A stretch of DNA of 64,000 bases from Escherichia phage vB_EcoM_PTE-Eco15: sequence record PQ352352.2. One strand, 5' to 3'. The position numbers and the translations under genes were made by a program. This document shows, in pieces, positions 20,185 to 23,623 of the stretch. Each line of letters begins with the position of its first letter. Positions within the stretch are counted from its first letter, which is position 1. The notes beneath the pieces were generated by a model. That model saw nothing but the letters and a program-made list of their open reading frames with translations, ran no database searches and had not been told where the DNA came from.

Positions 20185-20464
20185 ATACAAATCCGACTTT
20201 GATGTTAATATTCACCGCGGTACATTTTGGGGAAATTACGTCGGTAAAGATGCTGGCAGCCGGGAGGCTGCCATTGAATTATTCAAAAAAGATTTTATAC
20301 GTCGAATTAAATCCGGAGAAATAACTAAAGCACATTTAGAGCCTTTACGTGGAATGAGGCTAGGATGCACATGTAAACCAAAGCCGTGTCATGGTGATAT
20401 AATAGCTCATATAGTTAACCGATTGTTTAAAGACGATTTTCAAGTTGAGGACTTATGCAATTAA
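20138..20464 (+). CDS. hypothetical Cys-rich protein (up to 108 aa; true start uncertain)
   Basis: ORF track; [12 protein letters not shown] motif; overlaps upstream ORF so start may be internal. Confidence 0.4.
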
Positions 20465-21888
20465 TTAATGTTATCAAAAGTAGTGGTGTTTCTCAGAGCT
20501 TTGACCCGCAAAAAATTATTAAAGTTTTATCTTGGGCAGCTGAAGGAACATCAGTAGATCCTTATGAATTATATGAAAATATTAAATCTTATCTCCGTGA
20601 TGGAATGACAACTGATGATATTCAGACTATTGTCATTAAGGCTGCTGCGAATTCTATTTCGGTTGAAGAACCTGATTATCAATATGTAGCTGCACGCTGT
20701 TTAATGTTTGCTCTTCGTAAGCATGTTTATGGGCAGTATGAACCACGTTCATTTATTGACCATATTTCTTACTGTGTAAATGAAGGTAAATACGACCCTG
20801 AATTATTGTCAAAATATTCAGCAGAAGAAATTACATTTTTAGAATCAAAAATTAAGCACGAGCGGGATATGGAATTTACTTATTCCGGGGCGATGCAATT
20901 AAAAGAAAAATATCTAGTTAAAGATAAAACCACTGGTCAAATTTATGAAACTCCACAGTTTGCATTTATGACTATTGGAATGGCACTGCATCAAGATGAA
21001 CCTGTTGATAGACTAAAACACGTTATTCGTTTTTATGAAGCAGTATCTACTCGACAGATTTCATTACCAACTCCTATTATGGCTGGATGCCGTACTCCGA
21101 CTCGACAGTTTAGTTCATGCGTTGTTATTGAGGCAGGTGATTCGCTGAAGTCTATCAATAAGGCTTCTGCTTCAATTGTTGAATATATCTCTAAACGCGC
21201 TGGAATTGGAATTAACGTAGGTATGATTCGTGCTGAAGGTTCTAAGATTGGCATGGGTGAAGTACGCCATACTGGTGTTATTCCTTTTTGGAAACATTTT
21301 CAGACTGCTGTTAAATCATGCTCACAGGGTGGAATTCGTGGCGGCGCTGCTACTGCTTATTATCCTATTTGGCATTTGGAAGTTGAAAATCTTCTCGTTT
21401 TGAAAAATAACAAAGGCGTAGAAGAAAACCGCATTCGTCATATGGATTATGGTGTTCAGCTGAATGATTTGATGATGGAACGATTCGGAAAGAACGATTA
21501 TATTACTTTGTTCAGTCCGCATGAAATGGGTGGCGAGCTTTATTATTCTTATTTTAAAGACCAAGACCGTTTCCGTGAATTATACGAAGCAGCAGAAAAA
21601 GACCCTAATATTCGTAAAAAGCGTATTAAAGCCCGTGAACTGTTTGAATTGCTCATGACTGAACGTTCAGGAACAGCAAGGATTTATGTGCAGTTCATTG
21701 ATAATACGAATAACTATACTCCGTTTATTCGTGAAAAGGCACCTATTCGTCAGAGTAACTTGTGTTGTGAAATTGCTATTCCAACAAATGATGTGAATAG
21801 CCAACAAACCCGTTTAATCAAAATTAAGAAGTCGGATGTAGCTAAGTTTTATGAAGCTAATCCTGGTGGTATAATTCAAAGCAAATAA
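20455..21888 (+). CDS. nrdA: ribonucleotide reductase large subunit, N-terminal fragment NrdA-a (477 aa)
   Basis: Class I RNR alpha: N-terminal ATP-cone-like region, active-site SNLCCEIAIPT; ORF terminates 26 residues after NDVNS. Confidence 0.85.
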   Translation: MQLINVIKSSGVSQSFDPQKIIKVLSWAAEGTSVDPYELYENIKSYLRDGMTTDDIQTIVIKAAANSISVEEPDYQYVAARCLMFALRKHVYGQYEPRSFIDHISYCVNEGKYDPELLSKYSAEEITFLESKIKHERDMEFTYSGAMQLKEKYLVKDKTTGQIYETPQFAFMTIGMALHQDEPVDRLKHVIRFYEAVSTRQISLPTPIMAGCRTPTRQFSSCVVIEAGDSLKSINKASASIVEYISKRAGIGINVGMIRAEGSKIGMGEVRHTGVIPFWKHFQTAVKSCSQGGIRGGAATAYYPIWHLEVENLLVLKNNKGVEENRIRHMDYGVQLNDLMMERFGKNDYITLFSPHEMGGELYYSYFKDQDRFRELYEAAEKDPNIRKKRIKARELFELLMTERSGTARIYVQFIDNTNNYTPFIREKAPIRQSNLCCEIAIPTNDVNSQQTRLIKIKKSDVAKFYEANPGGIIQSK

Positions 21889-21933
21889 AGTACACAGACC
21901 GTTAATAAATAATCCATAACAAGAGGAAAAGTT

Positions 21934-22644
21934 ATGGATTATTCTAAAATTTACAATAACCTTATTTCTAAAGCTAAGAACAGAAAATTAGATTGCTATA
22001 CCGAATCACACCATATTATACCTCTGTGTATTGGTGGTTCTGATACAAAGGAAAACCTGGTAGATTTGACACCAGAAGAGCATTACATAGCTCATCAATT
22101 ATTAGTAAAGATATATCCAGATAATCATAAATTGATATTTGCCGCTAATATGATGTGTGTTTATTCTGAAGATAATATTGAACGAAAGAATACCAATAAA
22201 CGCCATGGGTGGCTTAGAAGAAAATTGGCTATTTCTGTATCTGAAAATAATAAAGGCAAACCAGCTTGGAACAAAGGTATTCCTATGTCTCCAGAAGTTA
22301 AATCTCGACTTCAAACATCTTGGGTGTTTACATTTCCGGATGGTCATGAGGAAATTCATCGAGGTCTTAACGAATTTTGTAAAGAGCATAATTTAAATCC
22401 ATCTGCAATGTCAGCCGTTTGTAAAGGTAAACGGTCGCATCACAAAGGATTTAAGTGTAAGAAATTGGATAAGATTTCAGAGCTTGATAATTTAGTTTTC
22501 GTCAGTAAACCTCATCCAAAGGGATTAAAACCCCATAACTTAATTGCTGTAAAAATAAACGGTATAGAATATCAATCAATACATCGAGCATCTAAAGCTT
22601 TAGGAATTACTAGAAAAAAGGTAGAAGAATTAAATGAATATTGA
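21934..22644 (+). CDS. HNH homing endonuclease, Mob-type (236 aa), inserted within nrdA
   Basis: HNH motif ESHHIIPLCIGGSDTKENLVDLTPEEHYIAH; C-terminal HTH-like IEYQSIHRASKALGIT; RBS aagagga; stop overlaps nrdA-b start. Confidence 0.8.
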   Translation: MDYSKIYNNLISKAKNRKLDCYTESHHIIPLCIGGSDTKENLVDLTPEEHYIAHQLLVKIYPDNHKLIFAANMMCVYSEDNIERKNTNKRHGWLRRKLAISVSENNKGKPAWNKGIPMSPEVKSRLQTSWVFTFPDGHEEIHRGLNEFCKEHNLNPSAMSAVCKGKRSHHKGFKCKKLDKISELDNLVFVSKPHPKGLKPHNLIAVKINGIEYQSIHRASKALGITRKKVEELNEY

Positions 22645-23623
22645 TTATGAATTTGTAGATGAATTTTACGAAGATGATGAGTATACTACAATAGAAGTTA
22701 TTGAAAACAAGGGAGAAGTGGGGCTTTGTACCCTTAGCGCATTTGTGTTGGATAACTTCGATTGGCAAGACCAAGATAAAATTAATGAATTGGCAGAAGT
22801 TCAAGTTCGTGCTCTTGATAATCTTTTGGATTACCAAGGATATCCAGTTCCTGAAGCAGAAAAAGCTAAAAAGCGTCGTAATCTTGGCGTAGGTGTTACT
22901 AACTATGCAGCTTGGCTGGCAAGTAACTTTGCTTCTTATGAAGATGCTAACGATTTAACACATGAACTATTTGAGAGATTACAGTATGGACTCATTAAAG
23001 CATCCATTAAGCTCGCCAAAGAAAAAGGACCTTGCGAATATTATTCAGACACTCGTTGGTCTCGAGGCGAATTACCTATCGACTGGTACAATAAAAAGAT
23101 TGACCAAATCGCAGCTCCAAAATACGTTTGTGACTGGTCGTCGCTGCGGGAAGACCTTAAGCTCTTTGGCATCCGTAATAGCACATTATCAGCACTTATG
23201 CCATGTGAGTCATCTTCCCAAGTTTCTAACAGTACAAACGGTATCGAGCCTCCACGTGGACCAGTCTCTGTTAAAGAATCAAAAGAGGGCTCCTTTAATC
23301 AGGTCGTGCCCAATATTGAGCATAACATAGACCTTTATGATTATACATGGAAATTAGCTAAGAAAGGTAATAAACCTTATCTTACGCAGGTAGCTATTAT
23401 GCTGAAATGGGTATGTCAATCAGCTTCAGCGAATACATACTATGACCCGCAGATTTTTCCAAAAGGAAAGGTTCCAATGTCAATAATGATTGATGACCTT
23501 TTGTATTTTTGGTACTTTGGTGGAAAAAATTTCTATTATCATAATACCCGTGATGGTTCTGGTACTGATGATTATGAAATAGAAACTCCAAAAGCTGAAG
23601 ATTGTTCATCCTGTAAATTATGA
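22634..23623 (+). CDS. nrdA: ribonucleotide reductase large subunit, C-terminal fragment NrdA-b (329 aa)
   Basis: Contains GLCTLSAF and CESSSQVSNSTNGIEPP active-site region and C-terminal CSSCKL cysteine pair; acidic N-terminal extension. Confidence 0.85.
   Translation: MNIDYEFVDEFYEDDEYTTIEVIENKGEVGLCTLSAFVLDNFDWQDQDKINELAEVQVRALDNLLDYQGYPVPEAEKAKKRRNLGVGVTNYAAWLASNFASYEDANDLTHELFERLQYGLIKASIKLAKEKGPCEYYSDTRWSRGELPIDWYNKKIDQIAAPKYVCDWSSLREDLKLFGIRNSTLSALMPCESSSQVSNSTNGIEPPRGPVSVKESKEGSFNQVVPNIEHNIDLYDYTWKLAKKGNKPYLTQVAIMLKWVCQSASANTYYDPQIFPKGKVPMSIMIDDLLYFWYFGGKNFYYHNTRDGSGTDDYEIETPKAEDCSSCKL

Follow-up and report, generated by a model that had tools for sequence, protein, structure and literature searches.

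A putative mobile cassette of homing endonuclease and charged tails splits nrdA in Escherichia phage vB_EcoM_PTE-Eco15

The nrdA-a/mobE/nrdA-b 'genes in pieces' of Aeromonas phage Aeh1 are reportedly the subject of Friedrich et al. 2007 PNAS and of Gibb & Edgell 2007, 2009. Here we describe a split gene encoding the ribonucleotide reductase (RNR) large subunit, nrdA, in Escherichia phage vB_EcoM_PTE-Eco15 (sequence record PQ352352.2), within a stretch of 64,000 nucleotides that was analysed as a whole and is referred to below as the window. The two Aeh1 chains form a fully active holoenzyme while remaining separate, with tails of isoelectric point (pI) 10.4 and 3.8 (PMC3045599). Activity requires these tails, and so does the assembly of the (a/b)2 large subunit and of the holoenzyme (PMC3045599). 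In Aeh1 mobE, as in I-TevI, a hairpin at the ribosome-binding site is combined with a late promoter, and only a late transcript initiated within the hairpin leaves the start site accessible (PMC2988022). The window nrdA is very probably a split gene of the Aeh1 kind, produced by an HNH homing endonuclease gene and translated as two separate halves. Its features are the following.

20455..21888, + strand: nrdA-a open reading frame (ORF), 477 amino acids (aa)
20455..21801, + strand: nrdA-a core, 449 codons, with the ATP-cone, the all-alpha domain, the first half of the RNR barrel and NLCCE (Cys439/Glu441 equivalents)
21802..21888, + strand: C-terminal tail of NrdA-a, 28 aa, QQTRLIKIKKSDVAKFYEANPGGIIQSK, with the stop codon at 21886-21888; part of the putative mobile cassette
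21889..21933, + strand: spacer of 45 nucleotides (nt), containing the late-promoter-like element AATAAATA (21904-21911) and the Shine-Dalgarno sequence AAGAGGA (21921-21927)
21908..21943, + strand: RNA hairpin with a perfect stem of 13 base pairs (bp) in the centroid fold, 21908-21920 pairing with 21931-21943
21934..22644, + strand: HNH endonuclease ORF, 236 aa
22634..23623, + strand: nrdA-b ORF, 329 aa
22634..22708, + strand: N-terminal head of NrdA-b, 25 aa, MNIDYEFVDEFYEDDEYTTIEVIEN; its first 11 nt (ATGAATATTGA) overlap the end of the endonuclease gene
22709..23623, + strand: nrdA-b core, with the second barrel half, LCTL (Cys462 equivalent), the YY pair and the C-terminal CSSC; stop codon at 23621-23623
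21787..22731, + strand: tract about 99% identical across divergent nrdA backgrounds, corresponding to the putative mobile unit with about 16 nt of conserved target on each side

The three ORFs were found at the positions and on the strand given in an earlier note made from the sequence of the window, which had also placed the catalytic residues on different polypeptides. With 1RLR (E. coli NrdA) as the reference of the alignment, the core of NrdA-a stops with ...PTNDVNS at the equivalent of D451 and NrdA-b restarts at V452; SNLCCE matches E. coli SNLCLE (437-441) and LCTL matches C462. Because the break lies between the D451 and V452 equivalents, NLCxE (C439/E441) and LCTL (C462) are indeed carried by different chains. 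The SSC (C225 region), FYYHN (Y730/Y731 pair) and CSSCKL (C-terminal Cys pair) motifs are also present in the translations, as read by eye without residue-by-residue alignment. With Pfam models, the ATP-cone, Ribonuc_red_lgN (all-alpha) and positions 1-221 of the barrel model Ribonuc_red_lgC are found in NrdA-a, and barrel positions 219-523 in NrdA-b. The NCBIfam model for class Ia NrdA, NF006578, is matched over positions 4-452 by NrdA-a and 452-759 by NrdA-b, so that the halves abut with no loss or duplication. The respective scores are 619 and 364 bits, and only their sum (983) passes the 813-bit cut-off.

An uninterrupted 754-codon nrdA, whose sequence includes ...GTGAATAGCCCTGATGCTGAAATTGGGCTTTGTACC..., is present in vB_EcoM_F1, a 98% identical relative. 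Compared with this intact allele, the insert consists of 912 nt in place of 8 nt (net +904; window ~21803-22714), of which about 200 nt lie outside the endonuclease ORF. The intervening DNA had earlier been put at 745 bp, which is the distance from the nrdA-a stop to the nrdA-b start and not the length of the insert, and the NrdA-a tail at 26 residues, where 28 are found. The G+C content is 29-35% over the cassette (window 21800-22700) versus 35-45% in the flanking nrdA, much as a decrease has been reported across mobE of Aeh1. The last residues of the head, VIENKGEV (window 22697-22720), align with V452-I459 of E. coli NrdA and are closer to the E. coli loop than the T4-type SPDAEI that they replace. 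By this alignment, VIENKGEV is nrdA-like sequence carried by the element and not foreign sequence, which suggests that the cassette may hold a few nrdA codons from an earlier host with a longer, E. coli-like loop.

The tail of NrdA-a and the head of NrdA-b are, as the note had described them, basic and acidic, respectively. The C-terminal tail has a net charge of +4 and a pI of 10.0, and the N-terminal head, which includes the peptide EFYEDDEYTTIEVIENK, a net charge of -10 and a pI of 4.05. Both are conserved in 10 lineages including Aeh1, with the motif L[IVF]K[IV][KR]K[SKC][DE][VI]xxF kept in the tail and YE[IF]VxEFYED[DE]EYTT[ILV][EQ][VI] in the head. Over these lineages the charges range from +4 to +7 in the tail (pI 9.6-10.6) and from -7 to -13 in the head (pI about 4.05), and the positions of the stop and start codons are constant. 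Differences accumulate at third codon positions, with 409 versus 248 and 172 at the other two positions in the tail, and 404 versus 255 and 86 in the head. The ratio of non-synonymous to synonymous differences per site (pN/pS) is 0.25 for the tail and 0.22 for the head, next to 0.25 and 0.245 for the adjoining catalytic segments; these values were estimated from the 10 deep lineages, whose synonymous sites are saturated, the coliphage tails being too little diverged. By this substitution pattern, the tails are under protein-level purifying selection as strong as that on the adjacent catalytic core. The alternation of hydrophobic and charged residues in RLIKIKK and YTTIEVIE suggests that the two segments could form paired, antiparallel strands prolonging the two barrel strands beside the break. 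A purine-rich, Shine-Dalgarno-like run, AAGGTAGAAGAA, lies just upstream of the NrdA-b start, within the endonuclease gene. Such a run is found 6-13 nt upstream of the nrdA-b ATG in every lineage, with an overlap of 1-20 nt between the two genes in all of them, and independent translation initiation of NrdA-b is plausible.

The insertion might instead have inactivated nrdA, leaving the two halves as remnants while the phage uses the host RNR or its own anaerobic NrdDG. T4 nrdA is dispensable in laboratory hosts, which counts in favor of such a loss. Both halves are nevertheless intact ORFs that differ from the functional intact allele of vB_EcoM_F1 by 41 synonymous codons and 1 non-synonymous codon, namely 23 and 1 in the NrdA-a core and 18 and 0 in the NrdA-b core. 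Split alleles compared with each other show 49/1 and 24/2 synonymous/non-synonymous codons. Since the differences from the intact allele and between split alleles are almost all synonymous, the gene does not appear to be decaying. In addition, the tails exist in the split state only and are under purifying selection over 10 lineages, and the Aeh1 enzyme is fully active (PMC3045599). We thus regard inactivation as quite improbable.

A group I intron carrying the HNH ORF would restore the nrdA messenger RNA by splicing, and the tails would then be untranslated intron ends. Introns of this sort interrupt td, nrdB and nrdD in T-even phages, whose RNR genes are classic intron hosts, and the window itself holds an intron with I-TevI in td, as follows.

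18048-19924: td gene interrupted by a group I intron with I-TevI; I-TevI ORF at 18728-19465, with GIY-YIG, zinc-finger and DNA-binding domains
19383-19564: 3' half of the td intron, Rfam Intron_gpI, expectation value (E) 7.5e-9
19610-19924: td exon 2 ORF; exon 1, at about 18048-18599, was inferred from the annotation of phage F26

The net insert of 904 nt in nrdA equals 1 modulo 3, so that exact excision would restore the 754-codon frame. The earlier note had set the intron aside on the grounds that the endonuclease gene leaves no room for a ribozyme core. Its preference for a split gene is supported, but this argument is weak, because some 200 nt of the insert are not part of the endonuclease ORF and because a ribozyme core can share its sequence with such an ORF. 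The splice rules alone are likewise insufficient. By eye, no pair of junctions that keeps the native 754-codon frame has U as the last base of the 5' exon as well as G as the last base of the intron, whereas a pair giving a product two codons longer fits both rules (intron at nrdA nt 1360-2257). The case is better decided by the Rfam scans and by the tails. In 301-nt scans over both nrdA junctions no Intron_gpI match was obtained even at E <= 10, while the same type of scan detected the 3' half of the td intron at 39.3 bits. A 10-kb Rfam scan was discarded as uninformative, since the known td intron was missed too. The tails behave as coding sequence in their third-position bias, their pN/pS of 0.22-0.25 and the constancy of their stop and start codons in 10 lineages. 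Moreover, in the homologous Aeh1 arrangement the products are separate polypeptides whose tails are essential (PMC3045599). An intron is therefore very improbable.

Protein trans-splicing by split intein halves, which would rejoin NrdA, has even less to commend it. Metagenomic nrdA genes fractured by split inteins and an endonuclease gene do exist (PMC2677866), Crona et al. suggested that the tails might derive from a degenerate intein (2010 NAR, PMC3045599), and in a metagenomic relative the gene also contains a true mini-intein, 10 residues upstream. The tails are, however, just 28 and 25 aa long, and no Hint or intein Pfam match was obtained in NrdA-a or NrdA-b of the window. In the 10 lineages, the C-terminal tail lacks a conserved first Cys/Ser and the head lacks a terminal His-Asn followed by Cys/Ser/Thr. 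The Aeh1 fragments also stay separate in the active enzyme (PMC3045599). Finally, a sequencing or assembly artefact, which the note had named as a possible source of the stop codon at 21886-21888, has a negligible chance of accounting for the stop codon and the insert, given that 34 records deposited independently and 8 metagenome contigs of differing sample origin all show the identical architecture.

A split gene with two translated halves, caused by insertion of a homing endonuclease gene, agrees with the nature of the interrupting ORF. By homology, the 236-aa protein is a Mob-family HNH homing endonuclease, an nrdA-embedded 'split' variant of mobE. The comparison with Aeh1 and T4 MobE that the earlier note had proposed shows tails homologous to those of Aeh1 and an endonuclease 45% identical to Aeh1 MobE over its full length, while its first 130 aa (the HNH domain) are 45% identical to T4 MobE (E 1e-31). 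The protein also matches PHROG 655 'homing endonuclease' (E 7e-59) and contains a Pfam I-HmuI NUMOD-like domain; the Pfam HNH model remained below threshold for it. The pattern HHIIP...N...H is common to the endonuclease, Aeh1 MobE (with invariant H26, H27, N41, H50 and H54) and T4 MobE. Two variants of the endonuclease were distinguished, one in the window, F26 and PTE-Eco05 and the other in HY01, IME537, ZQ3 and AV111. Their differences are dense at nrdA nt 1830-2045 (window 22284-22499), in the putative DNA-binding half, and amount to 31 synonymous and 23 non-synonymous codon differences, with the gene ends and both tails nearly identical. The F2 endonuclease looks like a recombinant between the two variants.

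We searched 50,697 phage records by megablast and protein searches. Of these, 834 match this nrdA and 32 span the whole split arrangement by megablast. Protein searches raise the split carriers to 34 GenBank/RefSeq records, representing 27 distinct phages, all with the endonuclease and the NrdA-b head. In tblastn with the head, residues 1-17 were masked by the low-complexity filter, and the 34 split records were still distinguished from intact ones. Because 98% identical relatives such as vB_EcoM_F1 carry an intact nrdA, the insert is a presence/absence polymorphism. The carriers fall in Tequatrovirus and Mosigvirus, ZQ3 and AV111 being recorded as Mosigvirus and F2 as Tequatrovirus. Identities to the window are unevenly distributed along the locus.

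PTE-Eco05: nrdA core 77-79%, C-terminal tail 99%, spacer 100%, endonuclease 99%, N-terminal head 99%
F2, ZQ3 and AV111: nrdA core 77-81%, C-terminal tail 97-99%, spacer 98-100%, endonuclease 89-92%, N-terminal head 96%

The spacer is 98-100% identical in seven Tequatrovirus/Mosigvirus copies. In the comparison with PTE-Eco05, dense mismatches extend to nrdA nt 1332, only 6 occur within nt 1333-2277, and they become dense again from nt 2278. By this mosaic of identities, the tails, spacer and endonuclease move as one cassette between genera. The patchy distribution (34 of 834 records), together with the sharp high-identity tract, leads us to infer homing. A tight polymorphism cluster is located just downstream of the cassette boundary, at window 22732-22750 (nrdA nt 2278-2296), even among 98% identical split alleles (F26). 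This cluster may mark the edge of a co-conversion tract.

When Aeh1 MobE was compared with the same phage records, its best non-self matches were these nrdA-embedded genes (45-48% identity), the next match being at 31%. A search of 5.8 billion proteins gave full-length homologues of the endonuclease with identities graded from 50 to 67%. All eight distant homologues whose contigs were examined, which are metagenomic, lie within a split nrdA that shows these tail motifs too. NrdA-a in these contigs is 474-485 aa long, or 614 aa where an intein is also present, one copy (L055) being cut by the contig end. NrdA-b overlaps the endonuclease and is 324-329 aa long in the seven contigs with the whole gene; it is cut by the contig end in L052. 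The 614-aa NrdA-a (L051 1107-2951, ENA ERZ14207129 contig) has a mini-intein of about 140 aa at the Cys439 equivalent (SNL/CLSGDS...ILVHN/CLEIAIPT). Only about 10 residues separate it from the endonuclease cassette downstream, so that two types of mobile element occupy one active-site loop. In an IMG/VR scan with endonuclease peptide patterns, Aeh1 was the sole split case, and the other nrdA-bearing loci were intact with an endonuclease homologue alongside. A search with a fused NrdA-a+b protein returned only near-identical intact T4-type NrdAs and gave no diverse alignment.

Upstream of the HNH ORF, both the late-promoter-like element and the Shine-Dalgarno sequence that had been noted earlier are present. 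The 3' arm of the hairpin holds the endonuclease AUG (21934) and the first codons, the Shine-Dalgarno sequence lies in the loop, and the 5' arm overlaps the late-promoter-like element. In seven lineages, 96.6% of the cells of the aligned stem are paired versus 30-47% with a slid partner, and compensatory changes are seen at three pairs. Across lineages, the 5' arm of the hairpin coincides in part with a (T/A)ATAAATA element. A sigma-70 promoter and terminator scan of the region found nothing above shuffled expectation.

Taken together, nrdA would harbor a self-contained cassette made of a basic tail with a stop codon, a regulatory spacer, a free-standing endonuclease gene, and, with a start codon of its own, an acidic head. 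From the biology of homing endonucleases, the enzyme would cut intact nrdA alleles in a mixed infection, and repair would copy the whole cassette between the codons equivalent to D451 and V452. By analogy with the Aeh1 experiments, neither RNA nor protein splicing would follow; each half would be translated on its own, and the two would associate as an a/b heterodimer. The tails borne by the cassette would be needed for assembly, as in Aeh1, making the insertion nearly neutral to the phage. On early and middle read-through transcripts the hairpin may bury the endonuclease AUG and hold translation down. Release of translation would be confined to transcripts initiated at the late-promoter-like element in the 5' arm. 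This scheme is proposed because the hairpin is conserved and because I-TevI and Aeh1 mobE provide a precedent.

Several observations weigh against this picture. The window element AATAAATA is one mismatch away from the canonical TATAAATA found in other lineages, and because of this deviation from consensus late-promoter activity in the window is uncertain. The 131-nt region around the hairpin folds no better than shuffled sequence (z -0.85), and only the local 13-bp stem stands out. T4 MobE cuts nrdB, not the gene adjoining its own insertion site (PMC2988022, Table 1). The saturation that affects the selection estimate, mentioned above, belongs here as well.

To a specialist the split nrdA itself, correct and tidy as it is, is unsurprising. 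Deposited genomes annotate two nrdA coding sequences and a homing endonuclease, the papers describing the vB_EcoM_112, HY01 and fPS-2/fPS-90 genomes pass over the split nrdA, and a 2022 preprint mentions similar cases as unpublished. What the alignments add to the printed literature is the joint transfer of tails and endonuclease between genera, with selection on the tails in 10 lineages. We lean towards viewing the arrangement of tail and stop, regulated endonuclease, and start and tail as a distinct and widespread class of mobile element. In such elements, portable assembly tags would replace a ribozyme or Hint domain, neutralise the element's own insertion into an essential gene, and move with it between phage genera. 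This reading goes beyond the single Aeh1 case in print because tails are conserved in 10 lineages and transfer between genera is clear. The 'genes in pieces' RNR of Aeh1 is no one-off accident, being one copy of a mobile cassette which occurs also in ordinary T4-like phages of E. coli, some of them under development for biocontrol. The data support the published view that the endonuclease gene brings the assembly tails with it. They also provide natural tail variants in a T4-type system tractable in E. coli, usable to study how two charged peptides rebuild a split active site. For annotators, the nrdA halves should not be called pseudogenes, nor should an intron be inferred.

Among known systems, the I-TevI gene of the td intron resembles the nrdA endonuclease gene in its host gene of nucleotide metabolism and in its control by a late promoter and hairpin (PMC2988022). 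It resides, however, in a group I intron capable of self-splicing, whereas the nrdA insert has no ribozyme signal and its ends appear to be translated.

T4 mobE shares the Mob HNH nuclease domain and the RNR operon neighborhood with the window gene (PMC2790892, PMC2988022). As the earlier note had stated, T4 mobE is intergenic: its 141-aa product is encoded between nrdA and nrdB and the gene splits nothing. The C-terminal, putative DNA-binding half of the window endonuclease has no counterpart in T4 MobE. The corresponding part of the T4 operon includes mobE, nrdB.1 and an intron whose I-TevIII is defective, whereas in the window nrdA-b and nrdB are separated by a 51-nt spacer without an endonuclease gene. 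The window nrdB (region 23624-24853) is an uninterrupted 392-codon ORF. In the close relative F26 (L002 6210-7778), a 1.5-kb gene separating nrdA-b from nrdB is annotated as an endonuclease, and nrdB is annotated as two parts around an HNH endonuclease gene. The endonuclease content of the nrdA-nrdB operon varies greatly among near-identical phages.

T4 mobA, also a Mob HNH gene, splits the gene of an essential enzyme, that for the topoisomerase large subunit, into gp39 and gp60 at a catalytic site (PMC3045599; bioRxiv 10.1101/2022.08.31.505936). Like the Aeh1-type split, gp39/gp60 have oppositely charged C- and N-terminal extensions derived from the element and reassemble without splicing. 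The mobA case differs in its target gene, in its unrelated extensions, and in a 50-nt translational bypass to which nothing in the window is comparable.

Aeh1 is the closest system. The gene order is the same and the break falls at the same residue, between NLCxE and LCTL. In Aeh1, nrdA-A (473 aa), a 46-nt spacer and mobE (237 aa), which overlaps nrdA-B (323 aa), correspond to 477 aa, 45 nt, 236 aa and 329 aa in the window. The Aeh1 tails are homologous to those of the window (..RLIKIKKSDVAKF.. versus ..MLFKVKKSEVDKF.., and ..EFYEDDEYTTIEV.. versus ..EVYEDEEYTTVEI..), with the shared motifs LxKxKKSxVxKF and YEDxEYTTxE. That complementary charges could help the fragments reassociate, as had been suggested for the window, fits their opposite charges but is not a new idea, having already been proposed for Aeh1 (PMC3045599). 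Both loci have a hairpin over the endonuclease translation start beside a late-promoter-like element, but the Aeh1 stem covers the Shine-Dalgarno sequence whereas the window hairpin has the AUG in its stem and the Shine-Dalgarno sequence in its loop. Aeh1 belongs to Cinqassovirus and the window phage to Tequatrovirus, with a protein identity of just 45-58%. The Aeh1 case was described as a one-off transposition, whereas the window cassette is polymorphic and shared between genera. Every defining feature of the Aeh1 system that can be read from sequence is present in the window. The earlier description of the window as an event comparable to that of Aeh1 was right as to its kind and understated, since a homologous cassette lies at the same site. 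By the homology of endonuclease and tails, the insert in the window and that of Aeh1 are the same element and not the outcome of parallel events.

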